A stretch of 28,386 nt of DNA from Polyangia bacterium (lineage in GTDB: Bacteria; Myxococcota_A; Polyangia; Polyangiales; Polyangiaceae), in NCBI GenBank assembly GCA_030430975.1, contig JAUIKB010000001.1, positions 1 to 28,386 of the forward strand, written 5' to 3'. The notes under the pieces were generated by a model. It searched no databases and was not told where the DNA came from. It saw only the letters and a list, made by a program, of their open reading frames with translations. The first letter of the stretch is position 1, and each line of letters opens with the position of its first letter. The translations under genes were made by a program, and so were the position numbers. Below, piece after piece: positions 2,613 to 19,515 of the stretch.

Positions 2613-5600
2613 GTGGGGTCACAAGACGAACATCTGCTAGGCGGGAGATTTCGCATCGAGCGCGAGGTCGGTCGCGGCGCAGTTGGCGTGATCTATCGAG
2701 CCTTTGACGTTCAGACGCAGTGCAACGTCGCGCTCAAGGTCATCGCGGCCGACGTAGGCGTCGCTCCGGCAGAAGAAGCGCGTCTGAAGCGCGAAGGGCA
2801 GGTACTCACAGGGCTGGACCACCCGGGGATCGTGCGCATCGTCGCCCACGGCGTTTCCGAACATACCGGGCAGCCGTGGGTCGCGATGGAGTGGCTCGAT
2901 GGCGAGGACCTGGAGGCACGCCAGCGCCGCAGCCCGCTGACCTTGACCGAAGCCATTCACCTGACGCAGTTGGTCGCTGAAGCGCTCGCATGCGCACACC
3001 GACACGGGGTCGTGCATCGCGACATCAAGCCCGGCAACATCTATCTATGCGGCAGCCTCGACGCGCCACCCGGTGAGCCGTGTATGCCAAAGCTGGTGGA
3101 TTTCGGCGTCGCTCGCGCCGACCAGTCACAAGCGTCCTTCGCGAACGTCGCCAAAGTGACTCGCGTAGGCGACGTCGTGGGAACGCCCGCGTATATGGCG
3201 CCCGAACAAGCGCGCACGGACGGAACGATCGACTCACGCAGCGACATCTACGCACTGGGTGCGCTGCTGTTCGAGTTGGTGGCGGGGAGGCCACCGCACG
3301 TCGGCACCAGCGCGATCGCAACGCTAGCCCGACTCGTCACCACTCCCCCGCCCCAGTTGCGCGATCTCAAACCCGAAATCCCAAACGCTTTGAGCGAGCT
3401 GGTCAGCGACATGCTCGAGACCGACGCCGACCGCCGACCTCAGTCCGCGGACGAGGTCGCGACTGCGCTGCGAGCCGTCCTCAGCGACGCCGACCGCTTG
3501 TCGGTTGCGCCCGCGTCGCTCGACGCGCCGATGTCAGCGCGCCTGGGCTCCAGCGCGTCACGTCTCGTGACGACGATCGTGGCCATCGGCTTCACAAAAA
3601 ACTCGCTTCGCCAGCGCGCTTTGAAACACCTTTCCGACCGGGGCGCCGTCGCCGTTCCCCTCGGCAAAGACACGTTGGTCGCCCACCTCGGCGCGCGGCG
3701 CGCTTCGGGGACGGAGGCGAGCGCTGCCTTGGATCTAGGGCGTCGTCTGGCGCGCGCAGCAGCGCAGGTGGGCGTTGCCAGCGGCCGGGCTCAAGTCGCG
3801 CAGGTCAAAGATGGTGAGCTGCGTCCGGTCGGCGAGGTCGTAGACCGCGCGTCGTCGCTCGCTCGCGAAGCGTCGCCGGGCATGGTGCTTGCCGACACGA
3901 CCACCGCAGAGCTAGGCCGCGGCCGCTACGAATTCCTAAGCCGAGATGACGGCTCCGCCGTGGTCGGCGAAGCGACCCGAGCGGGACGCGAACGAGTCGG
4001 TGGGGCACCCTTTGTTGGCCGCGACGCCGAGCTGCGCCAGATGTTATCGGCCTTCGAACGCTGCAGGCGAGACGACCGGCCGGCCATTGTGACCGTCACC
4101 GGATCGCCGGGTATCGGTAAGTCGCGGTTGCGACGGGAGTTCCTCGCCCGGATCACGAGCGGAGCTGAAATCGAAGTCATCCTTCAGCGCAGCGAGGCGT
4201 ACGGTCGCGCGCAGGCCCTCGGCGCGGCTGCCGGATTGCTCCGAGCCGTGGTCGGACTGTCGAAGGGCGTTAGCCTGGAAGAGGCTGACGCTGCCATCAG
4301 CGCGCACCTGGGTGACCGCCAGGTCGATGCTGCCCATCGTCCCGCGCTCGCGGCGCTCCTCGCCAACCAACCGCTGCCCGAGGGCGTCGACCCACGCAGC
4401 GTGCGTGACGCGCTGTGGCTGTCGATGACCGAGCTGGTCAAGCTGAGCGTCGGAGCCTCGCCAACCGTGATCGTCGCCGACGACATGCAGTGGGCGGACC
4501 CCGAGAGCATCGGCTGGCTCGAACACATGCTCGGTCGGCTCGACGGCACGGCTCTGTTCGTGCTCGCGCTGATGCGGCCGAGCTTCTGGACCGAACACGA
4601 TCAGACGTTCGCCGGAAAAGACCACACCCGCCTTGAGCTACGACCGATCAGTGCGCGCGCAACGCTCGCGATCGCACGCGCCATGCTCGGCGAAGACGTG
4701 TCCGATGCCGTGCTGGAACGCATCGCCACGCAGTCGGGCGGACTCCCGCTGTTCGCAGAGGAGCTCGCACGCCTCACGGGCGCCGGCGGCGACGCTTCGA
4801 GCGCGCCGACGATCGAGGCGGCGATCCAGGCGAGCCTCGACTCCCTGGACGAGGAAACCCGGGACGCTATCGGCCGGCTGAGCGTGCTTGGCCTGACGGT
4901 CTGGGACGACGCGCTCGACGCCCTCGGAATCTCGCCGGCCGAACCGGTCATGAAGGAGCTCGCGGCCGCCGAAATCCTCGTCGAGCAACAGACGTCGCGC
5001 TTTGGCGCCACCCGCGAGTGGGTCTTCAAGCATGCGCTGTTTCGCGACGTCACCTATGCGTCGCTTGGAACATCACAGCGGGAGCAACTGCATAGACTAG
5101 CCGGTGACTGGCTAGCCCAGGCCGGGGAGGACGCTGCGACGGTCGCCGGACACTTCGAACTCGCGGACCGCGCCGACCTAGCCGCCGCGCACTGGGAAAC
5201 CGCAGCGTGGCGCGCGTTGTCGACGAACGCGCTCATGGACGCACTGAATCTTGCCGAAAAGTCGCTAGCGTTCGCGGAAGACAAACCATCCGGGTTCCGA
5301 AGGGCCCAGTGCCTCGACGAAGCGTGGAGTCGCCTCGACCCCCGAGCCAGCGACCGTGAGTCGGCCATCGCCGCGCTCGAGGAGAACGTCTTCGACGATG
5401 TCAGCGCGCTTCGGGCGCGGGGCGCACGGGCGCGATATGCCGCCGAGCGCGGTGGCACCTACGACACCATCGACGAGCTCACCGCAATCCGGGACGCAGC
5501 CGCAACGTTGGACATCCGCGACGAAGAGGCGCAGACCGGCGCCGTGCTGGCCACACGTCTGGCGTTCGCCGGCAAGTTCGACGAAGCCGAAGCCGTCGCC

Positions 5601-6521
5601 GAACGGTTGCTGGAATTGTCGAAGCAGCACGGTGTCGAGGCTGCCGCGGTCGACGGATGGCAGACGCTCGCGATCGTGCGGCAAACTCACGGCGCGCTCA
5701 ACTCAGCGCTCGACGCGCGACGCAGTGCCGCCGAAGCGGCTCGGCTCGCCGGACTCAAGGAGCGAGAAGCCATGCTGCGCGCGAATCTCGGGTTCGCGTT
5801 GACGACGATCGGCGCCCGGGACGAAGCCCGCGCGTCGCTCGATGCCGGCATCGAACTCGCTCAGGCGATCGGCAGCGACGGTGCGATCCGCCACGTGAAG
5901 ATGAATCTGCTGGGATGGGCGTCCAGCTTCGGGTCTGACGCGCGCTTGGACGCCGTACTCAGCGATGTTCGATCCAAAGCGGACGCCGAGGCGAGCGGCT
6001 ACTGGACATCACAGGACCGGTCGAACCTCGGTGCGCTGTTCTACCGAGGCTGGGAACTGCTCCGCGGCGGCTCCGCCGACCGCGCCGACGCTGCGCTCGC
6101 GCTGCTCAAGCTCGCCTCGGACGGCTACAGGAACAGCGGCAACCGAGACGTGCTTCCGGTTGCCCTGGGCGTCTACGCTGAAGCCCAACGCCGTGCCGGT
6201 GATCTGGATGCGGCCACCGCCCTCGCCAAAGAGGCGGCTGATTTGCTGACAGACGTTGATAGCAGCCTGCTCAACGAAACGACCGTATACATCGCCCTCT
6301 ACCGGACCTGTCGCGATGCAGGTGACGCGGCGGGTGCGGCGTCTGCTATCGAGCGTGGGATGCCGCGTCTGCTGCGTCGACTCAAAGGCCTGGCCAGAAC
6401 GCCTTACGCGCGGCAGTTCCTCACCGAGCTCGCGGATAACTCAGCTTTTGTAGCCGCCGCCGACGGGCTCGGTCTACTGCCCAGCTCGGTGTCGGAACTG
6501 CTCGGCACAGGTGTTGGGTAG
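2613..6521 (+). CDS. Hanks-type Ser/Thr kinase fused to a degenerate class III nucleotide-cyclase-like domain, a STAND/AAA_16-type P-loop ATPase and a TPR-like helical C-terminus
   Basis: Kinase motifs: GRGAVG, VALKVI, HRDIKPGN, DFG, GTPAYMAPE, SDIYALG. ATPase: PFVGRDAEL, Walker A GSPGIGKS, Walker B VIVADDMQWAD, and WVFKHALFRDVTYASL. The C-terminus is Ala-rich helical repeats. This architecture is common in myxobacteria. Confidence 0.92.
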   Translation: MGSQDEHLLGGRFRIEREVGRGAVGVIYRAFDVQTQCNVALKVIAADVGVAPAEEARLKREGQVLTGLDHPGIVRIVAHGVSEHTGQPWVAMEWLDGEDLEARQRRSPLTLTEAIHLTQLVAEALACAHRHGVVHRDIKPGNIYLCGSLDAPPGEPCMPKLVDFGVARADQSQASFANVAKVTRVGDVVGTPAYMAPEQARTDGTIDSRSDIYALGALLFELVAGRPPHVGTSAIATLARLVTTPPPQLRDLKPEIPNALSELVSDMLETDADRRPQSADEVATALRAVLSDADRLSVAPASLDAPMSARLGSSASRLVTTIVAIGFTKNSLRQRALKHLSDRGAVAVPLGKDTLVAHLGARRASGTEASAALDLGRRLARAAAQVGVASGRAQVAQVKDGELRPVGEVVDRASSLAREASPGMVLADTTTAELGRGRYEFLSRDDGSAVVGEATRAGRERVGGAPFVGRDAELRQMLSAFERCRRDDRPAIVTVTGSPGIGKSRLRREFLARITSGAEIEVILQRSEAYGRAQALGAAAGLLRAVVGLSKGVSLEEADAAISAHLGDRQVDAAHRPALAALLANQPLPEGVDPRSVRDALWLSMTELVKLSVGASPTVIVADDMQWADPESIGWLEHMLGRLDGTALFVLALMRPSFWTEHDQTFAGKDHTRLELRPISARATLAIARAMLGEDVSDAVLERIATQSGGLPLFAEELARLTGAGGDASSAPTIEAAIQASLDSLDEETRDAIGRLSVLGLTVWDDALDALGISPAEPVMKELAAAEILVEQQTSRFGATREWVFKHALFRDVTYASLGTSQREQLHRLAGDWLAQAGEDAATVAGHFELADRADLAAAHWETAAWRALSTNALMDALNLAEKSLAFAEDKPSGFRRAQCLDEAWSRLDPRASDRESAIAALEENVFDDVSALRARGARARYAAERGGTYDTIDELTAIRDAAATLDIRDEEAQTGAVLATRLAFAGKFDEAEAVAERLLELSKQHGVEAAAVDGWQTLAIVRQTHGALNSALDARRSAAEAARLAGLKEREAMLRANLGFALTTIGARDEARASLDAGIELAQAIGSDGAIRHVKMNLLGWASSFGSDARLDAVLSDVRSKADAEASGYWTSQDRSNLGALFYRGWELLRGGSADRADAALALLKLASDGYRNSGNRDVLPVALGVYAEAQRRAGDLDAATALAKEAADLLTDVDSSLLNETTVYIALYRTCRDAGDAAGAASAIERGMPRLLRRLKGLARTPYARQFLTELADNSAFVAAADGLGLLPSSVSELLGTGVG

Positions 6522-8942: not shown

Positions 8943-10052
8943 ATGTCTCGTATCGCGCATACGCTTGGCGCCGCTACGCTCGCTGCGACGCTACTCGGCA
9001 CGACGGGTTCAGCGGCCAAGGGAACCAAGAAGCAGGCTCGGAGCTTCCTAAAACAGTTCGCCAAGGGCGCCGACAATGCCGGCCTCAAACTCACCAAGAA
9101 AGCCGCTGCTAAGTCACCCCACAGCTACCGGGTCTTCGTCGAGGCAACTCCGTTTCAGAACGCCTTCTACACGGATGAGGGCTCCCTGTACGCGCCCGCG
9201 AGCACGACCTCCACTTGGAAAACAGGCGCCTCGACCGTATCGATCGTGGAACCGTTCATCGGTGTCTCCTTACGAACCAAACGCTGGGGCAAAGTCAAAC
9301 CAACGGCCAGTCAACAGGACTACTTCGACCGACTCGCAAAACTGAGCGACAAGCAAGTCAACAAGCTCGCAAGGCACCTGACGCGGAAGACCGAACTGGT
9401 TCGCTACACTCTCGATAGCGACGGCAGCGGCACCGTCGACGCCACGGATCGGAAGTCGACTGCGTCGGCGGCATCCAAAGCGACCGACGACTTCGCGATG
9501 CTCAGGTTCGTGTACGGGACTGAATTGGTTGACGGCGTCCCCAAGGCCAAGACTCAGTCGTCCACCCTGGCGACCGGCATTGCGTTACCCCTGGACGAAA
9601 CCGACGACGACGCGGCCAAGGCCGTGCCGGTGTTTAGCTACCGGCTGTCCGAGCGGTTTTTGCAGTTCGACCTCAACAATGACGGCGACACCGAAGACGT
9701 GCTCTTGTTCGGCGATAGCGATTCCAGCGGGTCGCTCAACGCAACCGAAGCGACCGCTGTTTTTAAGACCGGACTCAGCAAAACGCCCGACCTGACGGAC
9801 AACTTGGATGTCGACGGGCGCTTCAAGGCCGGCGACGGAACGTCGTCGCTGCTGGAACGCGTCAAGGCTGCTAACGACAAGTTCGACACCAACGCAGCGA
9901 AGCTCTTCATCCGCAGTGGCATCGTGCGGGTAAGCGTGAGCGTGACGATCGAATACAAGTCAAAGAAGCGAAAGGCCTGGGTTCGTCAGACACTTCAGGG
10001 TTCGGCGGACTTCCGCAACTCGCTGCTGCGGCTGCTCGGGATGCAGAAGTAG
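8943..10052 (+). CDS. Secreted hypothetical protein with several EF-hand/DxDxDG-like calcium-binding loops
   Basis: Signal-peptide-like N-terminus MSRIAHTLGAATLAATLLGTTGSAA. Loops DSDGSGTVDATD, DLNNDGDTED, DSDSSGSLNATE. ATG 8943 is preferred over 8931 because TG-g-CATGCT-N7-ATG fits an extended -10. Confidence 0.6.
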   Translation: MSRIAHTLGAATLAATLLGTTGSAAKGTKKQARSFLKQFAKGADNAGLKLTKKAAAKSPHSYRVFVEATPFQNAFYTDEGSLYAPASTTSTWKTGASTVSIVEPFIGVSLRTKRWGKVKPTASQQDYFDRLAKLSDKQVNKLARHLTRKTELVRYTLDSDGSGTVDATDRKSTASAASKATDDFAMLRFVYGTELVDGVPKAKTQSSTLATGIALPLDETDDDAAKAVPVFSYRLSERFLQFDLNNDGDTEDVLLFGDSDSSGSLNATEATAVFKTGLSKTPDLTDNLDVDGRFKAGDGTSSLLERVKAANDKFDTNAAKLFIRSGIVRVSVSVTIEYKSKKRKAWVRQTLQGSADFRNSLLRLLGMQK

Positions 10053-10101
10053 CGGGCTGTCTCGCGCGGTCTTGTCGCGGCGCGGAGCGGGACGCCTGGC
10101 G

Positions 10102-10155
10102 GCAACGACTGTCGGCTGTGGCTACCGACTGTAGACGGCAGCTACGACTGTAGAC
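10102..10155. repeat. Three degenerate direct repeats (core CGACTGT, period 19-20 nt) at a convergent gene junction
   Basis: GCAACGACTGTCGGC (10102), GCTACCGACTGTAGAC (10121), GCTACGACTGTAGAC (10141). The last copy encodes the final codons and stop of the vWA gene. Confidence 0.75.
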
Positions 10156-11422
10156 ACCCGAGTTCCAGCTCAAGCTTGCCGGCCTGATCCGCCTGCACGG
10201 TGCTGCAGCTGTTGGGGCACAACAGCACGCGCGTCGGCGCCGCGGGATTGTCGTAGTAGTAACCGTCGCCGCCAGCGCATGCGGCCTGGTTGGCTACTTG
10301 GTTATAGAACACTGGCGTTCCTGTGCCCATCGGCGTGTACTTGACCTTAACCGCGTTGTAGTCGATCACGCCGCCCATGACAGTCGGGATAATCAGCTCG
10401 CACGCAACCGCCTGAATCACGTTGTTCGCGATGTTTGTGAAGACGGTTGAGTAGTTGCTGTCGCACACCGGATGCCGCAAGCCTCCGCTCGCGATGCTCA
10501 GCTCCTGATACTGTGGTCCCGTATTCACGGCGCTTGAACACTTCGAATTGGTCACGGCAGCGGTGGGGGGCAGCGGCGTGTTGACTCCGACGATCGAGTG
10601 GAAGATGTAGTTTGGCTGCGCCTGGGTCCCAAGCAGGCCGCTCGCCGTGGCGGACGTGAGCCACGTCTGGAAGGCAGACGAACTCACCTGCGACCTGTCG
10701 TCGGTCACTTCGACGAAGACCTTCAGCGCGGCTTGTCGAAGATGCGGCAGTACTTGAGCCGTGTACCTGCTCTGAAACAGAGATAGCGAATCCCGACGCT
10801 CGACGTGCTGGTTCACGTGAAAGAACCTGGGCGGGTTGTCAGCCCCGCAACTGCTGCCTCCGAGGGGCGCGTTGACGCACACCGGATACTGGCCGGTCGA
10901 GCCCGCAAACATGATCACTCGGTAGTCGAGGCCGCTGCCGCCGATGATCGTAGCGAAATTGTTGTTGATGTTGCTGCGGACCTGAGTGATCTCGGCGTTC
11001 ATCGAACAGGACTGATCGATGATCCAAATGATATCGACCGGCGGAGAAATCGCCTCTGCCGTAACCGACGCGCAGGCGTCCGGCTCGGGCACGTCACCGT
11101 CGTAAGTGAACTCGACGTCCGGCAGGCCGGAGTCTTGCACGGTGCCGCCGGTACTCGTCGTGCCCGCGGTGGACGTCCCCGCTTGGCCGCCCTTGCCGCC
11201 CGTGGTCGTGCCCCCGGTGCCGGCTCCGCCGATCGAGCTGGTCCCGGCCGTGGCTCCCACGCCGGCCTTGCCGCCATCACCGCCGGTCGCACCGCCTGCT
11301 CCGGACCCGCCGCCGACGGGACCACCGCCCGAGCCCGCGTTGCCGCCGCCGCCCGTCGAACAAGCGAACGCGAAGGCCGCGCCCAGTGAGAAAAGCCCAG
11401 CGTACTTAATCGAGTTCGCCAC
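10142..11422 (-). CDS. Myxobacterial vWA-domain lipoprotein with Gly/Thr-rich linker and Cys-rich C-terminal domain
   Basis: GTG 11422 gives the lipoprotein signal VANSIKYAGLFSLGAAFAFA-C. A Gly-rich linker follows, then the MIDAS motif DIIWIIDQSCSM, later VFVEVTDD, and the C-terminal YYYDNPAAPTRVLLCPNSC...LELGC. The track start at 11542 would overlap the upstream gene. Confidence 0.85.
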   Translation of the reverse strand: MANSIKYAGLFSLGAAFAFACSTGGGGNAGSGGGPVGGGSGAGGATGGDGGKAGVGATAGTSSIGGAGTGGTTTGGKGGQAGTSTAGTTSTGGTVQDSGLPDVEFTYDGDVPEPDACASVTAEAISPPVDIIWIIDQSCSMNAEITQVRSNINNNFATIIGGSGLDYRVIMFAGSTGQYPVCVNAPLGGSSCGADNPPRFFHVNQHVERRDSLSLFQSRYTAQVLPHLRQAALKVFVEVTDDRSQVSSSAFQTWLTSATASGLLGTQAQPNYIFHSIVGVNTPLPPTAAVTNSKCSSAVNTGPQYQELSIASGGLRHPVCDSNYSTVFTNIANNVIQAVACELIIPTVMGGVIDYNAVKVKYTPMGTGTPVFYNQVANQAACAGGDGYYYDNPAAPTRVLLCPNSCSTVQADQAGKLELELGCLQS

Positions 11423-11428
11423 GAGCCT

Positions 11429-11434
11429 AGGATA
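11429..11434 (-). promoter_or_regulatory. Putative -10 box (TATCCT), 6 nt before GTG 11422
   Basis: TANNNT-N6-GTG on the minus strand. A GGAG lies just upstream of the box, so a leadered start cannot be excluded. Confidence 0.45.
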
Positions 11435-11475
11435 CTCCGGTCCATCCCCGCCGCTAGCAGATTCAACGCTGCAGA

Positions 11476-13602
11476 CTACCGTAGAACGTGGACATGTACG
11501 GGAGAGCGCTCTAATCGACACCGCGCATCGCGCTTTTGACACGCCAGACGAATCGACGACGCCGCGTCTGGAGCGCGGTGGCGCAAGTACGCCGAGAGTG
11601 CGGTTTGGGCTTCTGGCGCACCCAGCGCGGCCAGCGACGTCGCTTGCGCGCGCAACAGGGCTTCGGATCGCGGGTTAACTCGGAGCCCGGCGATCGCAGC
11701 GTTCAGCGCGCCGCCCGGTCGGCCCGCGCTGCCCAGCGCCGTAGCAAGCTCACCGAGCAGCCGATGATCCGAGGTCCCGGTTCCGACAGCGCGCCGCAGC
11801 CAACTTGACGCTTCCGGCCACCGCCACACCCGCGCCATCGCACGCCCGACAACCCGCAGCAGCGCTGGATGACCCGGCAAGAGCGCTAGCCCAGCCTCCG
11901 CGAGCTGTTTCGCCTCATACGGGCGCCCGTGATCGGCTGCGAGTTTAGCTAGCCCCCACAGAGCCATCGCTTCGCCGCGTGCATCGCCTCGCTTGCGCAT
12001 CGCCTGCCGAGCGGCTGTCAGGCTTGGCCGAGCCTGTTCAAGCGTTTCCTGAAGCCCGTGCAGCAGGCCGACTCCGTGCTCCAGCAGCACACGCGGATCA
12101 GGCGCCCCATCGTCGGCTCCCCCGATTGTCGTGCGCACGTCGGCAATCGTCGTTTCGGGCTGGGGCGGACACGGGTCCAACGCCGCTTTCGCTGCGCGGC
12201 GCTTTCTCGCGTCGCGGCACGCCGCCCGCTGCATGGCCGGGCTTCGAGACCGATGAACGATGCGAGCTCGAATCGTGATGGGGGCGACCGGTTCACGTTG
12301 GTCCGGGACGATAAAACGGTAGCGAATCACGCGGCTATCCCGCGCAGGAATCGCCGTGTTGTAGACGATGGCCGCCGCGTCTGCCGTCTCGTGCTCGTGC
12401 AGGATCACGCCATCCTTATCCGCAAGCCCCGCTTCAAACCGGTGGGCGACACGCCCCACGGATCCTGCCAGGCGCTTACCTTGCGCGTCCACGAGTTCGA
12501 CCTCTAGGCGGGTATCTTGAATATCTAGGACGCCACCTGGGAAGCGATGACCGACACGGCGATTGTGCACGACGACGTCGATCGTAGCCTCGTCCCCGGG
12601 AGTAAGCCCGACGCGCGTCGGCAGCCACCTGGATTGCCCGTCCACCTCGACGCGGACGATATGCAGGTCGACGACACCTTTGAGCGCGCGGGCAATCCGC
12701 GCCTGCCGGTCGGCGTCGCCGCGCATCTGCGCAAGCCACGTGTGGCCTGCGAGAAACTCGTGGGATTTGACCTTCCCGTCAGTTGCAGCCGAGTCCGCCA
12801 ACTCGGCGGCAATCGTCGGCATGTGACAATCGACGCAAGAACGCTTCTCGACTGGCCAATCCACTCGACTCGACAAGGCCCCGGCGTACGCTGACACCTG
12901 CCACTGATCGACGTCACCGACCCCGGTGAGTTGCCGCTCCGGTTTCGGAAGAAACCCTCGATGGCAACCTAGACACAGCGATTGCGTCTTGATCGGCGCA
13001 GGCCGCACTGCACGCTTGTGAGCGGCCGTTGAATTCGGCTTGCTCGCCACCGGCAGCACCAGCGGTTCAGACCCGATTGTGTAACTTCCATTCCCGTCAG
13101 CGGTGGCGTCCACGGCGCCATGGCAGATTCGACAGCTCACCCCTGCATCGCGACGCGGGTCTTCAGCACGGATGGCCGTGTCCATGGCGCCATCGAGTTG
13201 AAGCGCCGGGTCGTGACAGCCTCCGCAGTGGCGGCTTTGTTTCGCGCCGACCGAGGCTCGCAAATGATCGACGTTCGTCCGATAGACCGGGTTGTTGAAC
13301 GTCGCAAACGCATGACTGCTCGCTCGCCACTGCTCGGCCGTCGCAGCGTGACATCGCGCGCAATCATCCACTCGGGCGAGGTCGTGACCCGTCACAGACC
13401 CTTCGCTCAACCGAGACTGCGACGGCGGCCGGTCGCCGCGCTCGCGCGGAACCAGCGCTGATGGCAGCGCTGCACCTGTCGATGGCCGGCTCGATGCGGA
13501 CGCCGCGGGCGGATGCGGCTTTGGACGCGGCGGATCGCACGCGATGAAGGCCCCTATCCCGACTGGGATGAACCAGAGGATGTCACGCGCCGCTACGATC
13601 AC
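11476..13602 (-). CDS. Multiheme (5 x CxxCH) c-type cytochrome lipoprotein with C-terminal TPR repeats
   Basis: CARCH, CGGCH, CRICH, CLGCH, CVDCH(MP). c554-like pattern C-x-x-CH-x5-QW-x-x-SSHA and a VGHRFPGG motif. N-terminal hydrophobic stretch ending GAFIA-C followed by a Pro/Ser linker. Helical TPR-like repeats occupy the last ~200 aa. Confidence 0.88.
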   Translation of the reverse strand: MIVAARDILWFIPVGIGAFIACDPPRPKPHPPAASASSRPSTGAALPSALVPRERGDRPPSQSRLSEGSVTGHDLARVDDCARCHAATAEQWRASSHAFATFNNPVYRTNVDHLRASVGAKQSRHCGGCHDPALQLDGAMDTAIRAEDPRRDAGVSCRICHGAVDATADGNGSYTIGSEPLVLPVASKPNSTAAHKRAVRPAPIKTQSLCLGCHRGFLPKPERQLTGVGDVDQWQVSAYAGALSSRVDWPVEKRSCVDCHMPTIAAELADSAATDGKVKSHEFLAGHTWLAQMRGDADRQARIARALKGVVDLHIVRVEVDGQSRWLPTRVGLTPGDEATIDVVVHNRRVGHRFPGGVLDIQDTRLEVELVDAQGKRLAGSVGRVAHRFEAGLADKDGVILHEHETADAAAIVYNTAIPARDSRVIRYRFIVPDQREPVAPITIRARIVHRSRSPAMQRAACRDARKRRAAKAALDPCPPQPETTIADVRTTIGGADDGAPDPRVLLEHGVGLLHGLQETLEQARPSLTAARQAMRKRGDARGEAMALWGLAKLAADHGRPYEAKQLAEAGLALLPGHPALLRVVGRAMARVWRWPEASSWLRRAVGTGTSDHRLLGELATALGSAGRPGGALNAAIAGLRVNPRSEALLRAQATSLAALGAPEAQTALSAYLRHRAPDAASSIRLACQKRDARCRLERSPVHVHVLR

Positions 13603-15235
13603 GCCGTCGATACAATGCAGCCAACCCTAGGAGCCCCGCCCAACCGCCGAACGCGAGGTGGCGCCCTGGCGCTCCGACCGCGCACGCGCCGCACCCCGAC
13701 TGCTCGGTCTGACCGGAGCTGCCGGAAGTCTGTTCGTTCACAGCGGGTACCTTCGGCACTTCCGAGGGCACTGCCGGCTTTGACACCTGGATTCCCAGTT
13801 CCGGTACGGACTGATTCACATGCTTGGCGAGCTGAATCGCACCCCGCGGCGCAAACGCGAGATCGGTGGCCGCGGCTGGGCGACTCGTCGAGCCGCTGGG
13901 TGGTCCGCCCCAGACGCCGCGACGCGGGTTGTCGCAAGCGATGGGTCCTTTCCAAGGATGCCTAATGATATACCTCGCCTGGAAGTTGTTGCGCGATGCT
14001 GGCTGGGCACCTTCTTCGAGCTGCCCGCCCGCAGACTTGCGATGCTCCCGACCGCCGCTGATGGCCGGCGCTTCGCGAAATACCAGGTCCTCTTTGAGGG
14101 ACGCCTTGTCGTAGCGAACGTGTAGACGAGTCAGGACGAAGCCGCCCCCCGGTCGGCGCCGGCCACTGGGACTCGGCCTCCTGACGCGATCGGAGAGCGG
14201 CACGGCCGCCCCGGTCTTTGCCGGCGGCGGCGTACCATCGAGGATGTCCTTTCCGAGCGTCGCTAGCTCTTTGGGGCGCAGCGCCGGCACCGGGCAAGGA
14301 TCACACGTACTGGCGTCCCAAGCGTACTCCGTCACAACCGAGCCTGGATTCCGTTCCAACGTTTGGTCGAACAACGCCGCGTACAGTTCCCCGAACCTTC
14401 CTTTTGACGATTCCTTTAGATCGATGTTGGTGGGTATCGTTACGTTCTTGTAGTTGGCGACCTCATACCTTTTCCCACGCGCTAAAATATGAACGATCAG
14501 GTCTTGCTTGTTCTTCGCATTCAACAGCCCGAGCCGCACGGGTAGCGCAAACTTGTCCGAATCATAGTAGAACCGCAGCGGAGACAGTTCAGCCTGCCCC
14601 GCCTTGAACGTCACTTTCTCAGGATTGACCTTGGCCACGAAGAACTTCATGCCCTGCTTTACATACGGCTGGAGCACAGGTTCCGCGCCGTCCGGAATCG
14701 CGTAGTCGTTCTGTTTCAGCCAGGTGTCCAAGCCGCTTGAGTCCTTAGCGCTTAGGATGACGATGTCGTACTCGCCGACCTCGAACTGGGCTTCGATCTT
14801 CACCCCTAAATCCGCGCCGCTGCCGCCGCCCGGCGTCGCCGCCATGGGCGCCGGACGCGGCATCGAGCCGCTCCGCTTGAAGCGCATCCGAGGCCGACAC
14901 GGGTCTTGCTCCCAGTACTCGACCATTCTCGGTGCAGCTAGCTTGTCCAGGCGATCAAACACGGCGTTGTTGAGCGTCTTGACGTTTTCCTTCTGCAGGA
15001 CGACGGGGACGGGAACGACCATCGCGAACTTGGCCGCGGGACCCTGATAGTTGTTTTGCATCGACAGCACGGTGCGCGTGCCGTCTCGCATCATCGCCAC
15101 CATCGTCGCATTGTTGAACAGCTTGGCGTCGGCACCGCCGACGTAGAAGCCACAAAAGGCGCTTGCTTCTGCCGGCGCGAGCATACAGAGCGCGGCGCCC
15201 GCGGCTAGGACGTGGTGGGCGAAGAGTCGTTTCAT
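13583..15235 (-). CDS. DUF2330-family surface protein with MYXO-CTERM sorting signal (paralog 1)
   Basis: Signal peptide ending ASA-FCGFYV. Motifs SMQNNYQGP, FAMVVPVP, APRMVEYWEQDPC, MKFFVAKV, LPVRLGLLNA, VVTEYAW. C-terminal GCGAC + hydrophobic helix + RRR. Confidence 0.85.
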   Translation of the reverse strand: MKRLFAHHVLAAGAALCMLAPAEASAFCGFYVGGADAKLFNNATMVAMMRDGTRTVLSMQNNYQGPAAKFAMVVPVPVVLQKENVKTLNNAVFDRLDKLAAPRMVEYWEQDPCRPRMRFKRSGSMPRPAPMAATPGGGSGADLGVKIEAQFEVGEYDIVILSAKDSSGLDTWLKQNDYAIPDGAEPVLQPYVKQGMKFFVAKVNPEKVTFKAGQAELSPLRFYYDSDKFALPVRLGLLNAKNKQDLIVHILARGKRYEVANYKNVTIPTNIDLKESSKGRFGELYAALFDQTLERNPGSVVTEYAWDASTCDPCPVPALRPKELATLGKDILDGTPPPAKTGAAVPLSDRVRRPSPSGRRRPGGGFVLTRLHVRYDKASLKEDLVFREAPAISGGREHRKSAGGQLEEGAQPASRNNFQARYIIRHPWKGPIACDNPRRGVWGGPPSGSTSRPAAATDLAFAPRGAIQLAKHVNQSVPELGIQVSKPAVPSEVPKVPAVNEQTSGSSGQTEQSGCGACAVGAPGRHLAFGGWAGLLGLAALYRRRDRSGA

Positions 15236-15237
15236 GG

Positions 15238-16974
15238 CTAGGTCAGACGCTCGGGCGCACGATTCGATCTACGAACTCGCCGACGAAGTCGGCGCCCTAT
15301 CAGTAAACTGAGGCCAAACATTCCCCAAGGAACCGACTTGCTCGGCTCGCTGGGCGAACCTATCCGACACGCGCCACAACCCGACCCATCCGACCTGGTG
15401 CTCGGCGCAGCGGTTTTGGCTACCTGTTTGGGTTCTGGCTTCGGCGTCACCTGAATTCCGAGTTCGGGCACGCTGGTGTTCACGTGCTTCGCCAGCTGAA
15501 GCGCGCCACGCTTGGCAAACGCCAAGTCGGTTGCGGCCTTGGGGTTGGATCTCTGTCCGCTGGGAGGGCCACCCCACACACCCCGCACCGGATTCTTGCA
15601 CTCGATCGGGCCCTTCCATGGGTGCCGAATGATGTACCGCGCTTGAAAGTTATTCCGCGAGGCTGGTGTGGAGCCCTCTTCGAGACGACCGTTTCGCTTC
15701 ACTTCACGGCCGCCCGTGATCGGCTTCGCTTCGCGGAACACCAGGTCCTCTTTGAGCGACGTCTTGTCATAGCGGGCGTGGATACGCGTGAGCACAAACG
15801 ACCGGAACCGGCGGCGCAGAGCGGGCACGCGGCGCGGCTTGGCGACGCTGATCTTGTCCGCCATTCCTGCGGGCGGCGGCACCCTGGACTTGCCCAGCTT
15901 CAGTCTATCGGACAGCTTGAGCGCCGAGGCGGCGGGAGCAGGCGTGCTGCCGGGGGTCAGCGATTGGCCAGCGGGCAAATCCAAGATGTCTTGCCCGAGC
16001 GACATGAGCTCTCCTCGGTTGAGCGCCGGCACCGGACAGGGGTCACAAGTGCCAGCATCCCAAGAGTACTCGGTCACCACCGACCCGGGGTTCTTCTCAA
16101 GCGTCTGGTCGAACAGAGCGGCGTAGAGTTCGCCAAAGCGTGGCTTCGATTCCTCCTTGACCTCGATATTCGTCGGGATCGTCACGTTCTTATAGTTCGC
16201 GACTTCGTAGCGCTTCGAGGGAGCGAGGATATGCACGATCAGGTCCTGCTTGTCCTTTGCATTGAGCAAGCCGAGCCGAACGGGCAGCGTGAATTTTTCT
16301 GAATCGTAATGAAAACGGAGCGGTGACAACTTGGCTTGCCCGTTCTTGAACACGACCTTTTCGGGATTGATCTTAGCGACAAAAAACTTCATCCCGTCCT
16401 TGACGTAGGGTCGCAGCACTTCCTCAGCACCTGATGGGATCGCGTATTCGTTTTGCTTCAGCCACGTCTCGAGCCCCGACGAATCCTTCGCGCTCAGGAT
16501 AACGATCTCGTACTCGCCGACGTCGAACTGCGCCTCGATCTTCACTCCCAACCCCCCACCCTTGGACTTGCGAGCCCCACCTGGGGCCGCCGCCATAGCC
16601 GCACTTTCGCCTTCGTCTTCGGGAGCCTCGAGCTGCCTGCACGGATCCTGCTCCCAGTACTCGACCAGACGTGGTGCGGCCAGCTGGTCAAGGCGCGAAA
16701 AAACCTCGTCCTTCAGCGTCTTCACGTTGTCTTTTTGCAGCACGACCGGCACCGGAATGACCATGGCAAACTTCGAAGCCGGCCCTTGGTAGTTGTTCTG
16801 CATCGACAACACCGTGCGGGTGCCGTCGCGCATCATCGCAACCATGGTGGCGTTGTTGAACAACTTGGCGTCGTCTCCTCCAACGTAGAAACCGCAGAAC
16901 GCCTCCGCGTCACGTTCCACGGATGTAACGGCCAGTGCGCAGAGCAATGCTGCTGAGAATAAATGACGCTTCAT
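15238..16974 (-). CDS. DUF2330-family surface protein with MYXO-CTERM sorting signal (paralog 2)
   Basis: Signal peptide ending AEA-FCGFYV. Same core motifs as paralog 1. C-terminal GCGAC...WGMFGLSLLIGRRLRRR. Its stop lies 2 nt from the start of paralog 1. Confidence 0.85.
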   Translation of the reverse strand: MKRHLFSAALLCALAVTSVERDAEAFCGFYVGGDDAKLFNNATMVAMMRDGTRTVLSMQNNYQGPASKFAMVIPVPVVLQKDNVKTLKDEVFSRLDQLAAPRLVEYWEQDPCRQLEAPEDEGESAAMAAAPGGARKSKGGGLGVKIEAQFDVGEYEIVILSAKDSSGLETWLKQNEYAIPSGAEEVLRPYVKDGMKFFVAKINPEKVVFKNGQAKLSPLRFHYDSEKFTLPVRLGLLNAKDKQDLIVHILAPSKRYEVANYKNVTIPTNIEVKEESKPRFGELYAALFDQTLEKNPGSVVTEYSWDAGTCDPCPVPALNRGELMSLGQDILDLPAGQSLTPGSTPAPAASALKLSDRLKLGKSRVPPPAGMADKISVAKPRRVPALRRRFRSFVLTRIHARYDKTSLKEDLVFREAKPITGGREVKRNGRLEEGSTPASRNNFQARYIIRHPWKGPIECKNPVRGVWGGPPSGQRSNPKAATDLAFAKRGALQLAKHVNTSVPELGIQVTPKPEPKQVAKTAAPSTRSDGSGCGACRIGSPSEPSKSVPWGMFGLSLLIGRRLRRRVRRSNRAPERLT

Positions 16975-17420
16975 CGTGAGGCCTTCTTGGTGGATCGACC
17001 CGAACTCGCCGTGCGACGCTTTCGAGGCAGCGGGGGTGGCTTCGCCTTCCGTCGCTTCGGAGGCGACGCTGGTCGGGGCGGCTTAGCAGCCGCTGTCGTC
17101 GTGGACCTTGCTGCTGCGGTCGCGCGAATACGCTTGTTAGCCGGTGCCGCCTTTGCCTTGGCGGCAGCAGACTTCGGGCCGGAGCGAGCGCGAGGTTTCG
17201 CGGCTTTCGCTGATGTGCGTCGACGCGGCTTGCTGACCGGCACAAAGGATATGCCCGCGCCCACTTTGAGTCCGGCGATGTCTCGCTCGTAAGCCTCGTG
17301 AATCAGCGCCTTGAGCAGCTGGGTCTTGGTTACGCCTTTGGCCACGGCCAGCTGCTTGAGCATCGCAACTTCGTGCTTGCTCAGCGTGACCCGCGGACGA
17401 CTTGCTCCCTTCGTCGGCAT
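16971..17420 (-). CDS. Ribbon-helix-helix (CopG/MetJ/Arc-like) DNA-binding protein with a Lys/Arg/Ala/Pro-rich histone-H1-like tail
   Basis: ATG 17420 (149 aa). RPRVTLSKHEVAMLKQLAVAKGVTKTQLLKALIHEAY fits the RHH pattern. The last ~100 aa contain no Asp or Glu. The stop overlaps the next ATG (ATGA), and third codon positions are GC-biased. Confidence 0.7.
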   Translation of the reverse strand: MPTKGASRPRVTLSKHEVAMLKQLAVAKGVTKTQLLKALIHEAYERDIAGLKVGAGISFVPVSKPRRRTSAKAAKPRARSGPKSAAAKAKAAPANKRIRATAAARSTTTAAAKPPRPASPPKRRKAKPPPLPRKRRTASSGRSTKKASR

Positions 17421-17426
17421 GCGGCG

Positions 17427-17432
17427 AGTGTA
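17427..17432 (-). promoter_or_regulatory. Putative -10 box (TACACT), 6 nt before ATG 17420 (leaderless)
   Basis: TANNNT-N6-ATG on the minus strand; no SD. Confidence 0.5.
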
Positions 17433-17483
17433 CAGCACAACGCGGGGACGCCCCACAGCAGTGCAACCACCGCCCGACGGGCG

Positions 17484-18332
17484 CTACCAGCGCTTGGAAC
17501 GGCCGCTGCGCGCCTCGGAAACCACCGCGGCATCCTGCTCTTTCTTCAGCAGCACTCCGGAAAAGGGCAACTCGCTCTTGATGCGCTCGGCGCCGACACC
17601 AGCGCGCGCTAGAACCGCGATCCAGTCGATCAGCTCGCTGGTCGACGGGCGTTTTCGAACCCTCGGTACCGAACGGAGATCGTAAAACGCCTTGATCGAC
17701 TGGTCGACCAGCGCGTCATCCAGCTCCGGGTGGTGAACCGCCACGATGCGCTTCATCAGCTCGGGTTCGGGAAAGTCGATGAAGTGGAACACGCAGCGCC
17801 GCAAGAACGCATCCGGCAGTTCCTTCTCGTTGTTGCTGGTGATGACGACGATCGGTCGGTGCTTGGCTACGATTTCGTCCTTCGTTTCGGAAACCGTGAA
17901 TCGCATGCGGTCGAGTTCGTGCAGCAAGTCGTTGGGGAACTCTAAGTCCGCCTTGTCCACCTCATCGATCAACAGCACCACGCGGTCGTCACTCGCGAGC
18001 GCCTCCCCGAGCGGTCCATGCTTGATATACCGGCGTATGTCCTTGACGGCCTCCGCGCCACCGTCGCCGAATCGAGCGTCGTAGAGGCGCTGAACCGTGT
18101 CGTAGATGTAGAGGCCGTCCTGCGCGCGAGTGGTCGATTTAACAGCCCAGTGAATCAACCGGTAGCTCATCGCATCGGCGATGGCGTGTGCGAGCAGCGT
18201 CTTGCCTGTACCCGGTTCGCCCTTAACCAAGAGCGGGCGCTCGAGCGCTACGGCGGCGTTGACGGCCGCTTCCAGAGCTGGGTCGGTTAGGTAGCTTGAG
18301 GTTCCGGTGAACTGGGAAAAGGAGTCAGACAC
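17484..18332 (-). CDS. MoxR-family AAA+ ATPase
   Basis: RPLLVKGEPGTGKT (Walker A), VLLIDEVDKAD (Walker B), FPNDLLHELD, ITSNNEKELPDAFLRRC, RKRPSTSELIDW. Confidence 0.93.
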   Translation of the reverse strand: MSDSFSQFTGTSSYLTDPALEAAVNAAVALERPLLVKGEPGTGKTLLAHAIADAMSYRLIHWAVKSTTRAQDGLYIYDTVQRLYDARFGDGGAEAVKDIRRYIKHGPLGEALASDDRVVLLIDEVDKADLEFPNDLLHELDRMRFTVSETKDEIVAKHRPIVVITSNNEKELPDAFLRRCVFHFIDFPEPELMKRIVAVHHPELDDALVDQSIKAFYDLRSVPRVRKRPSTSELIDWIAVLARAGVGAERIKSELPFSGVLLKKEQDAAVVSEARSGRSKRW

Positions 18333-18489
18333 GGTGTGTAGGTAGTGCTGCGGGATCCAATTTACAAGGGGCCGCCGATGATGAAGCGGCCGATCGCTAG
18401 CGACTGAGCATCACGCCGGCGAGAACGACGAGCGAACACGCACGAATTGCCAGCGCGACTGGTATGGTCGGAGCCTGGTTGCATCCCCC

Positions 18490-19515
18490 ATGTCCCGCTA
18501 CGAAATCCTAGGTGCCTGCCGTGATGACGAAGACGACCTGCTCAAGCTGGCGCGCTTCCTCAACACGGTGAATCTGCCCGACGACCGCGCGTCGGTACGC
18601 TCGCTGCTCAGCCATGCCGAGCAGAGTTTTCGCGGGGACATCCCACCAGCACAGCGCAAGTTTGTGTTCGTACTTTGGGACCGGGTCGAGAAAGCAGCTG
18701 TGGGTACCTCGATGATCGTGGCACAGCACGGGCGACCTGACGCGCCGTACATCTATCTCGACGTGATACCCGAGGAGAAATACTCGAAGGCGGTGGACAA
18801 GCACTTCCGCCACCTGCTGTTGCGCCTAGGTTTCTCGTACGACGGGCCCACCGAAATCGGGGGTCTAGTCGTCCATCCGGAATACCGCCGCGTGCCACAG
18901 CGGCTGGGCCTGATGATCTCCTATGTGAGGTTCTTGTACATCGCTGTTCATCGCGAGCTGTTCCAGAACTACGTGCTCGCCGAGCTGCTGCCCCCGTTGG
19001 AGGCTGATGGCACCAGCCATCTTTGGGAGGCGCTCGGGCGTCACTTTACGGACATGAGCTACGCCGAGGCCGACTTTCTTTCGAGCCGCGACAAGACGTT
19101 CATCAAAGACTTGTTCCCAAGCGGCGCTGTCAACGCCAGTTTGCTGGCACCCGAGGCGCGCGCGGTGATCGGCCAGGTCGGCCAGCAAACCAAAGGCGTG
19201 GAAAAAATGCTCAGGAGGGTGGGCTTTCGCTACGTGGACCGCGTCGACCCGTTCGATGGCGGGCCACATTTCGCGGCGCAAATCGACGACGTTACGTTGG
19301 TGCGGGCCACGTCGAAGAAAACCGTCACGGACCAGGCCATCCCGGGCGATCCGTTCGTCGCGCTGGTGGCGCGCGACGAAACCAGAGCGCCCTACTTCCG
19401 CGCGATACGTGCGACCATTTCGTCCGACGACACGTCCGCGCAGCTGTCACCCGACGACCGCGCTGCGCTAAAGTGCGACGTGAGCGACACGGTGATCGTG
19501 TTGCCGCTGCGCTAG
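18490..19515 (+). CDS. astA: Arginine N-succinyltransferase (AstA family, GNAT fold)
   Basis: TEIGGLVVHPEYR, VLAELL, GTSHLWEALGRHFTDMSYAEAD, FIKDLFP, ARAVIGQVG, GFRYVDRVDPFDGGPHF match the AstA family pattern. Confidence 0.88.
   Translation: MSRYEILGACRDDEDDLLKLARFLNTVNLPDDRASVRSLLSHAEQSFRGDIPPAQRKFVFVLWDRVEKAAVGTSMIVAQHGRPDAPYIYLDVIPEEKYSKAVDKHFRHLLLRLGFSYDGPTEIGGLVVHPEYRRVPQRLGLMISYVRFLYIAVHRELFQNYVLAELLPPLEADGTSHLWEALGRHFTDMSYAEADFLSSRDKTFIKDLFPSGAVNASLLAPEARAVIGQVGQQTKGVEKMLRRVGFRYVDRVDPFDGGPHFAAQIDDVTLVRATSKKTVTDQAIPGDPFVALVARDETRAPYFRAIRATISSDDTSAQLSPDDRAALKCDVSDTVIVLPLR

Follow-up and report, generated by a model that had tools for sequence, protein, structure and literature searches.

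Conserved pairing of DUF2330 proteins with a pentaheme cytochrome lipoprotein in myxobacteria: a candidate envelope redox module

The first 28,386 nucleotides (nt) of contig JAUIKB010000001.1, from the Polyangia bacterium assembly GCA_030430975.1, were analysed here and are called the window. Four minus-strand open reading frames (ORFs), arranged head to tail at 11476-17420, encode a small protein, two DUF2330 proteins and a pentaheme c-type cytochrome with a tetratricopeptide repeat (TPR) domain. The locus raises the question of which of these genes belong together, and for what purpose. An earlier reading of the window, made from its sequence only, had proposed a self-regulated four-gene module. 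The conserved unit was found to be smaller, and it is probably a two-part envelope redox module, in which at least one membrane-tethered DUF2330 protein has one lipid-tethered pentaheme cytochrome as its dedicated electron-transfer partner. The basis for this reading is formed by the domain identities, the conserved adjacency of the two genes, their phyletic co-occurrence and a mutually exclusive, RnfD-like partner of DUF2330. The four genes are the following:

11476-13602, minus strand: pentaheme c-type cytochrome lipoprotein with TPR domain, 708 amino acids (aa)
13583-15235, minus strand: DUF2330 protein B, the cytochrome-proximal copy, 550 aa
15238-16974, minus strand: DUF2330 protein A, the upstream copy, 578 aa
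16971-17420, minus strand: small orphan protein, 149 aa counted from ATG 17420

Gene order and junctions were borne out as first read. The small gene and the DUF2330-A gene share an ATGA overlap (ACG-ATG-A), the two DUF2330 genes are separated by a 2-nt gap (TAG-CC-ATG), and the GTG start of the cytochrome gene lies 20 nt within the DUF2330-B gene.

Conserved partners of DUF2330

The family assignment of the two middle genes was confirmed by strong PF10092 matches, with E = 2e-62 (211.3 bits) for DUF2330-A and E = 6e-69 (232.7 bits) for DUF2330-B, at a gathering cut-off of 24.7 bits. Related loci were scanned with one genome per species. This gave 80 cytochrome loci from named Polyangiaceae, Kofleriaceae, Nannocystaceae, Haliangiales and Sandaracinaceae genomes, 71 of which had enough upstream sequence to be informative. 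Adjacency of the two genes in other genomes had been set beforehand as the refutation test, and it was conserved: a DUF2330 gene was located <1 kb upstream of the cytochrome gene, on the same strand, in 58 of the 71 informative loci. Among the loci fetched from relatives, 11 of 14 had DUF2330 directly upstream of a full-length cytochrome ortholog, and the pair of Haliangium ochraceum shows a 1-nt overlap. Other classes of the phylum have the pair as well. A search around the 80 loci for regulators, porins and maturation genes yielded no other conserved neighbour; the remaining synteny was of the family-level housekeeping kind (glycine-cleavage genes, HtrA, permease).

The conserved unit consists of one to six tandem DUF2330 genes, followed by one cytochrome gene. 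The two paralogs of the window are therefore not a fixed pair, as had been assumed, but the product of a lineage-specific duplication. A tree built from 42 cytochrome-linked DUF2330 proteins placed A and B as sisters, with 100% support in the Shimodaira-Hasegawa-like approximate likelihood ratio test, which points to a recent event. Their branch lengths (0.59 for A, 0.18 for B) mark the upstream copy as the faster-evolving duplicate. Position in the array was not conserved overall, with 18 label changes in the tree versus 19.8 in shuffles, so copy number reflects repeated local amplification. Nannocystaceae, however, have retained positional orthologs. About half of the copies of this DUF2330 subfamily are dispersed in their genomes, and the cytochrome is usually encoded once per genome, a distribution that fits one shared partner. 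The source genome has seven PF10092 matches, and its other copies adjoin unrelated genes, for example those for a penicillin amidase and CinA.

The two genes also occur together across genomes. The cytochrome was encoded in 17 of 60 relatives, and the close DUF2330 subfamily in exactly those 17. Of 200 genomes of the phylum, 29 had both, 1 had only the cytochrome, 2 had only this DUF2330 subfamily and 168 had neither; these counts are a pattern and not a probability, because related genomes are not independent and co-occurrence statistics overstate the signal. One relative (G025) carries two DUF2330-cytochrome loci (C6:7831-9898 and C29:583502-585557), in both of which the cytochrome match falls into three parts and TGA stops are present. 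Frameshifted copies, decaying copies or errors of the assembly may lie behind this.

A second type of partner was detected in cytochrome-less genomes. There, the gene of a PF03116 (RnfD/NqrB-like) protein preceded and overlapped the FCGFYV-type DUF2330 gene in 4 of 4 tested cases (E = 2e-11 to 4e-20, above the model's cut-off), and two proteins were PF03116+PF10092 fusions. The RnfD-like partner was present in 11 of the 200 phylum genomes, none of them among the 30 that bear the cytochrome, and in 10 of the 11 it was adjacent or fused to DUF2330. It matches the C-terminal half of PF03116 and is a trimmed, polytopic inner-membrane protein. The DUF2330 proteins linked to it end in PWWxRLW, not in the tail of Cys motif, transmembrane helix and Arg cluster described below. 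Neither a PF03116 match nor the FFMxxDPxT motif was found in the source genome, whose assembly is 77% complete, or in any cytochrome locus. With two unrelated partners of the electron-transfer class, each closely linked to its own DUF2330 subfamily and not found together in any of the 200 genomes, the simplest interpretation makes DUF2330 the exported component of a redox module. This alternative partner, overlooked in the sequence-only reading, is the best clue to the role of the cytochrome at this locus.

In 17 further genomes, more distant DUF2330 homologs were present with neither partner. That the N-terminal Cys of DUF2330 tracks the cytochrome alone was considered and rejected: the residue is retained in RnfD-linked and in some partner-less subfamilies, its loss being confined to the FPG-type homologs, which read F-P-G at the mature N-terminus where the others have F-C-G. 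Four FPG-type homologs (L156 4007-5719, L158 4058-5791, L169 3875-5716 and L175 3680-5743), all from genomes without either partner, have kept the other four Cys and the Cys/transmembrane/Arg tail. At another locus (L174, 5084-8860, plus strand), a 1258-aa protein with 12 putative metal-binding repeats of the MopE type (PF11617, E = 6e-88) is encoded next to, and divergently from, an FCGTYVG-type DUF2330 gene, and large ORFs were seen at the equivalent position of L177 and L178. The whole DUF2330 family comprises 9,285 representative clusters at E<=1e-3. Five of its representatives (P0291, P0311, P0322, P0330 and P0338) are ~1,090 aa long, have no CXXCH and show a family match split in two, which suggests an insertion of ~500 residues inside the domain.

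Architecture of the two proteins

DUF2330-A and DUF2330-B are 66-69% identical. Both have a signal peptide, followed by a mature N-terminus that reads F-C-G-F-Y-V. The cysteine motifs pointed out in the sequence-only reading (FCG, DPC, CDPC and I-x-C) were present in both proteins. In an alignment of 40 homologs, the AFCGFYV segment was invariant, as were Cys28, 113, 311, 314 and 434 of DUF2330-B. AFCGFYV was found in 74 of 96 cytochrome-linked DUF2330 copies, and C113, in a D-P/V-C motif, was invariant across nine diverse members of the family. The CDPC motif was tried as a redox CxxC and discounted; relatives carry C-x3-C. Mature cytochrome-linked DUF2330 proteins have five Cys and Pro-type relatives have four. 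By this parity, the Cys at position 2 of the mature FCG-type protein is probably unpaired, a free thiol.

The invariant DPC of DUF2330-B is followed by a variable, disordered loop of ~31 residues (residues ~114-143, window 14807-14896). In the AlphaFold2 (AF2) model of this protein, which has a predicted local distance difference test score (pLDDT) of 76, the loops 120-142, 335-361 and 499-529 were disordered. The DUF2330 profile had no match among the PDB sequences. At the structure level, the best Foldseek match in PDB was baculovirus P35 (1P35, E = 2.8e-4, probability 1.0), and the best match in BFVD was a granulovirus P35 (E = 1e-3). Superposition with P35 gave a TM-score of only 0.31-0.37 and a root-mean-square deviation (rmsd) of 9-11 Å. 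The matches ranked after P35 were weak and included inter-alpha-inhibitor-like proteins.

The C-terminal tails of the two proteins had been read as MYXO-CTERM sorting signals. The elements of such a signal are visible: GCGAC, a transmembrane helix and RRR in DUF2330-B (window 13601-13699), and GCGAC, a hydrophobic stretch and an Arg-rich end in DUF2330-A (window 15271-15387). The scores against the MYXO-CTERM model TIGR03901, on the other hand, stayed below its cut-off of 20, with 19.3 bits for A and 17.6 bits for B. The same model matched 20 of the 40 DUF2330 homologs at E<=0.01, and many homologs are annotated as MYXO-CTERM proteins by the Joint Genome Institute. R-x-R was found at the end of 91 of the 96 cytochrome-linked copies, and 82 of the 96 have a Cys among their last 60 residues. 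The myxosortase cognate to MYXO-CTERM is MrtX (PMC11980579). In the source genome, a CPBP protease on contig C200 scored 130.8 bits against the MrtX model NF040593, whose cut-off is 180, and matched only the C-terminal half of the model. Surface sorting of the DUF2330 pair by its MYXO-CTERM-like tail is plausible, judging from these sequence features.

The cytochrome had been described as a pentaheme cytochrome c-TPR lipoprotein, and this description held. It has exactly five CXXCH motifs, at residues 81, 126, 157, 210 and 256, all of them invariant in 43 homologs and predicted to attach heme. A lipobox-like F-I-A-C22 follows the signal peptide. The Cys column is nearly invariant in the same alignment. 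Cys22 is the predicted site of lipidation, and a Pro-rich tether of ~50 aa comes after it. In the AF2 model (pLDDT 88, predicted TM-score 0.88), the remainder of the protein is divided into three domains, the middle one an immunoglobulin (Ig)-like fold:

12682-13389, minus strand (residues ~72-307): helical five-heme domain, from the AF2 model and the CXXCH motifs
12124-12672, minus strand (residues ~311-493): Ig-like beta-sandwich with an invariant GHRFPGG loop, from the AF2 model and the 43-homolog alignment
11509-12096, minus strand (residues ~503-698): TPR domain, from profile and model

The protein has a PF13435 match (E = 2.6e-11). In the TPR region, matches to consensus-TPR structure profiles reached E = 1.8e-43, the model has eleven helices at residues 503-698, and Foldseek matched them to MamA, PilF and CTPR. 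Between residues 23 and 461, there is no Cys besides those of the CXXCH motifs. His residues outside the motifs are invariant or nearly so at positions 97, 195, 281, 287 and 352, and also at 387, 450 and 703. With these eight available for five distal positions, all five hemes may be bis-His ligated. Long disordered tethers were seen in the AF2 models of both DUF2330 and the cytochrome.

As a candidate, the NrfB pentaheme subunit was rejected, with 26 and 25 bits on TIGR03146 and NF008659 (cut-offs 166.6 and 184). The source genome encodes two further multiheme cytochrome paralogs, on C357 (L137, 43-1350) and C895 (L138, 1908-3923), with 25-29% identity to the window cytochrome. They are of the same general type, and the neighbour of each is a gene for a Ser/Thr protein kinase. 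In the case of C895, the kinase ORF overlaps that of the cytochrome, possibly as part of a single unit.

Local additions and neighbouring genes

Around the conserved pair, the window has the following features, in addition to the small orphan gene listed above:

10142-~11422, minus strand: gene of a lipoprotein resembling von Willebrand factor A (vWA) domain proteins, starting ~53 nt past the cytochrome stop
17427-17432, minus strand: TACACT hexamer, 6 nt 5' of ATG 17420, putative -10-like element with no -35
17484-18332, minus strand: stand-alone AAA ATPase gene, 282 aa, ending 63 nt upstream of the small gene

The small protein had been called ribbon-helix-helix (RHH)/histone-like, an identity that could not be upheld. 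The RHH_1 model PF01402 reached 14 bits (E = 0.049), below its gathering cut-off of 20.5, when only the first 60 residues were used, and there was no PF01402 match to the full-length protein. The N-terminal ~50 aa are weakly RHH-like and have a coding-type GC pattern (0.66/0.42/0.76), and the tail, which lacks acidic residues, is composed of A, R, P, K, S and T. Its longest ORF begins at GTG 17456. No homolog was found by tblastn in ~110 related loci or in the source genome, and a search with the RHH-like head against 5.8 billion proteins also returned none. By these searches, the small gene is a lineage-specific local addition, outside the conserved module. Because of this, self-regulation, which had been proposed for the four genes, is not a property of the system.

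The hexamer upstream of the small gene had been read as a leaderless promoter (TACACT-N6-ATG 17420). While the hexamer is present, it has no -35 element, a consensus promoter scan found no promoter at 10000-18600, and the TANNNT-N5-7-ATG pattern occurs seven times in the window. At the other end of the unit, no minus-strand terminator was predicted between the cytochrome gene and the vWA-like lipoprotein gene, and the two may be co-transcribed. The vWA-like lipoprotein is Gly-rich, with a DxSxS motif (DQSCS) and a Cys-rich C-terminal domain. It matched no Pfam family and had ~12 paralogous tblastn matches on other contigs of the source genome. Its gene stands beside the cytochrome gene in only 1 of the 80 loci, so this adjacency is not conserved. 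A counterpart of the AAA ATPase gene was absent from every related locus.

In loci of Polyangium and other Polyangiaceae (L092, L102, L078, L066 and L072), the cytochrome gene is immediately followed by a convergent gene for a STAND-type Ser/Thr kinase like the 1302-aa protein of the window (2613-6521, plus strand). In the window, the kinase gene is 5 kb from the cytochrome gene. Its recurrence may reflect old synteny or a regulatory link.

Readings of the pair and comparison with known systems

In the two-part redox module that we favour, DUF2330 and the cytochrome would meet in the periplasm, each on its flexible tether, with the TPR domain of the cytochrome as the docking surface for DUF2330. 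Electron transfer would then link the heme chain to a site on DUF2330; the best candidate for this site is the conserved second residue of the mature protein, a Cys. In other DUF2330 subfamilies, the RnfD/NqrB-like membrane protein would fill the electron-transfer role. At this locus, the RHH-like and vWA-like lipoprotein genes would be local additions to the transcription unit. A wider and more tentative proposal, which we regard as possible but not as the likelier outcome, would make DUF2330 the exported, active component of widespread, undescribed extracytoplasmic redox modules with an interchangeable electron-feeding partner. This partner would be a flavin-type RnfD/NqrB-like protein in most lineages, and a TPR-bearing pentaheme lipoprotein in this myxobacterial clade. 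The thiol by the mature N-terminus would be the centre of the chemistry, and target specificity would be given, for each tandem copy, by its hypervariable loop.

Several observations weigh against the two-part module. Contact and electron transfer between the two proteins are inferred. DUF2330 has no recognisable cofactor site, and its CDPC motif is probably structural. If the MYXO-CTERM-like tail does sort DUF2330 to the surface, it puts the protein in a compartment other than that of a periplasmic lipoprotein. No electron donor is encoded nearby, and no DUF2330-cytochrome fusion was seen among the 120+120 matches listed or among 150 representatives. In species of Polyangium, and in one genus with 11 species, the two genes are not linked, and the co-occurrence counts carry the bias from related genomes noted above.

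In a rival reading, the cytochrome is a one-time maturation enzyme. Its TPR domain would recognise newly exported DUF2330 protein, in which the enzyme would then cross-link a residue or modify it by oxidation before sorting, for example the N-terminal Cys or one in the YWEQDPC segment. Such enzymes exist: methylamine dehydrogenase is a substrate of MauG, and MbnP is one of MbnH. A maturation role would remove the compartment problem, should DUF2330 end on the surface, and it agrees with a single cytochrome gene for several DUF2330 genes, dispersed copies included. TPR domains commonly bind substrate proteins, and the Ig-like domain of the cytochrome has an invariant, His-bearing GHRFPGG loop. 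This loop may be comparable to the one in MccSep, where the catalytic selenocysteine (Sec) extends from an Ig-like domain to heme 2. We nevertheless consider a maturation role doubtful. There is enough conserved His for five bis-His hemes, which points to a wire rather than to an open catalytic heme; the RnfD-like partner found elsewhere looks like part of a standing membrane complex and is sometimes fused; and no modified DUF2330 residue is known. A P35-like protease trap or decoy, with the fast-evolving loop as exposed bait and the Cys by the mature N-terminus, would leave only shared regulation or location to link DUF2330 with the cytochrome. P35 was the best Foldseek match in two independent libraries, the loop after the invariant DPC is variable and disordered, and tandem copies have diversified repeatedly. 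With the low TM-score and high rmsd of the superposition, and with the near-perfect co-occurrence with the cytochrome and the RnfD-like adjacency and fusions left unexplained, we hold this to be improbable.

The self-regulated operon of the sequence-only reading is about as improbable. It would have the RHH/histone-like protein act as repressor of its own leaderless promoter, and the TPR tail would be docked by two distinct DUF2330 subunits on the surface. Its tight junctions are compatible with translational coupling, and the first 50 aa of the small protein do weakly resemble RHH, but the gene is an orphan, the promoter scan found nothing, and the DUF2330 genes arose by recent duplication and do not stand for two distinct conserved subunits. 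Neutral synteny, meaning adjacency inherited without functional coupling, is unlikely and to us the least credible explanation of all. Every locus comes from one phylum, and the genes stand apart in some lineages. Yet everything else around the pair changes between families, the pair has been gained and lost together, and the unlinked genomes (the 11-species genus and Polyangium) nevertheless keep both genes.

The sequence-only reading knew of no described system of this composition, and of no function for DUF2330. This agrees with the literature searched, in which no paper naming DUF2330 was found; no function has been assigned to the family. For the cytochrome version, the pairing can be approached in cultured organisms, namely Haliangium ochraceum, Plesiocystis pacifica, Enhygromyxa salina and Nannocystis. 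If the module turns out to be redox machinery of the thiol-based or sulfur/metal kind in the envelope of aerobic predatory bacteria, it would add something new to myxobacterial physiology.

The first ~490 residues of the cytochrome resemble the low-potential pentaheme cytochrome c552 of Thermochromatium tepidum (5ZE8), with which they share a five-heme helical domain followed by an Ig-like beta-sandwich. This was the best Foldseek match (E = 3.9e-11, TM-score 0.64 over 474 columns), accompanied by a weak profile match (1.6e-6). Sequence identity is ~18%, and 5ZE8 has neither the lipobox tether nor the TPR domain. Its own function is unassigned, and it has no known link to DUF2330. Geobacter sulfurreducens has a selenocysteine polysulfide reductase, MccSep/ExtKL, which forms a soluble homotetramer, lacks TPR and is built from a pentaheme cap and an Ig-like stem, in which a loop of the Ig-like domain brings Sec325 to heme 2, whose ligands are His and Cys (bioRxiv 10.1101/2025.11.18.688581). 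The window cytochrome has this fold in common, whereas the heme ligand C239 and the Sec/Cys325 of MccSep are absent from it. The MccSep model NF040886 gave only a weak match at residues 289-381 (18.7 bits, cut-off 250), and with a score so far under the cut-off and the catalytic Cys/Sec missing, membership in MccSep/ExtKL was rejected. As judged from its sequence, the window cytochrome shares the fold of MccSep, but not its catalytic site. The lipid tether and the TPR domain are a new architecture for a recently recognised pentaheme/Ig-like fold, whose only characterised member is an enzyme of sulfur respiration.

Other parallels are more distant. In the SoxAX-SoxYZ system, the target of a c-type cytochrome is a conserved Cys, carried on the flexible end of a partner encoded next to it; in SoxY, this Cys is C-terminal. 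The analogy is one of working principle only, with no sequence or fold relation to the window system and nothing here pointing to sulfur chemistry. MtrC and OmcA are lipid-anchored multiheme cytochromes of the envelope, and PF22113 (MtrC/MtrF domain II/IV) scored 30.7 on the window cytochrome, at a cut-off of 30. MtrC differs from it in heme count and fold, and the locus has no gene for a porin or a periplasmic decaheme partner. PtdA is a pentaheme protein with a beta-sandwich and no assigned function, encoded in a porin-cytochrome cluster (bioRxiv 10.1101/2023.11.21.568154). Unlike the window locus, this cluster is without DUF2330.

The RnfD/NqrB-like + DUF2330 pairs, which were not found in the literature searched, involve the same DUF2330 family with the same FCGFYV N-terminus, sometimes in tandem copies, and an adjacent or fused partner of an electron-transfer family. 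Their partner differs in being a membrane protein and not a heme protein, and in the 200 sampled genomes it never shares a genome with the cytochrome system. That DUF2330 travels with one of two unrelated electron-transfer partners provides the first testable handle on the function of this family.

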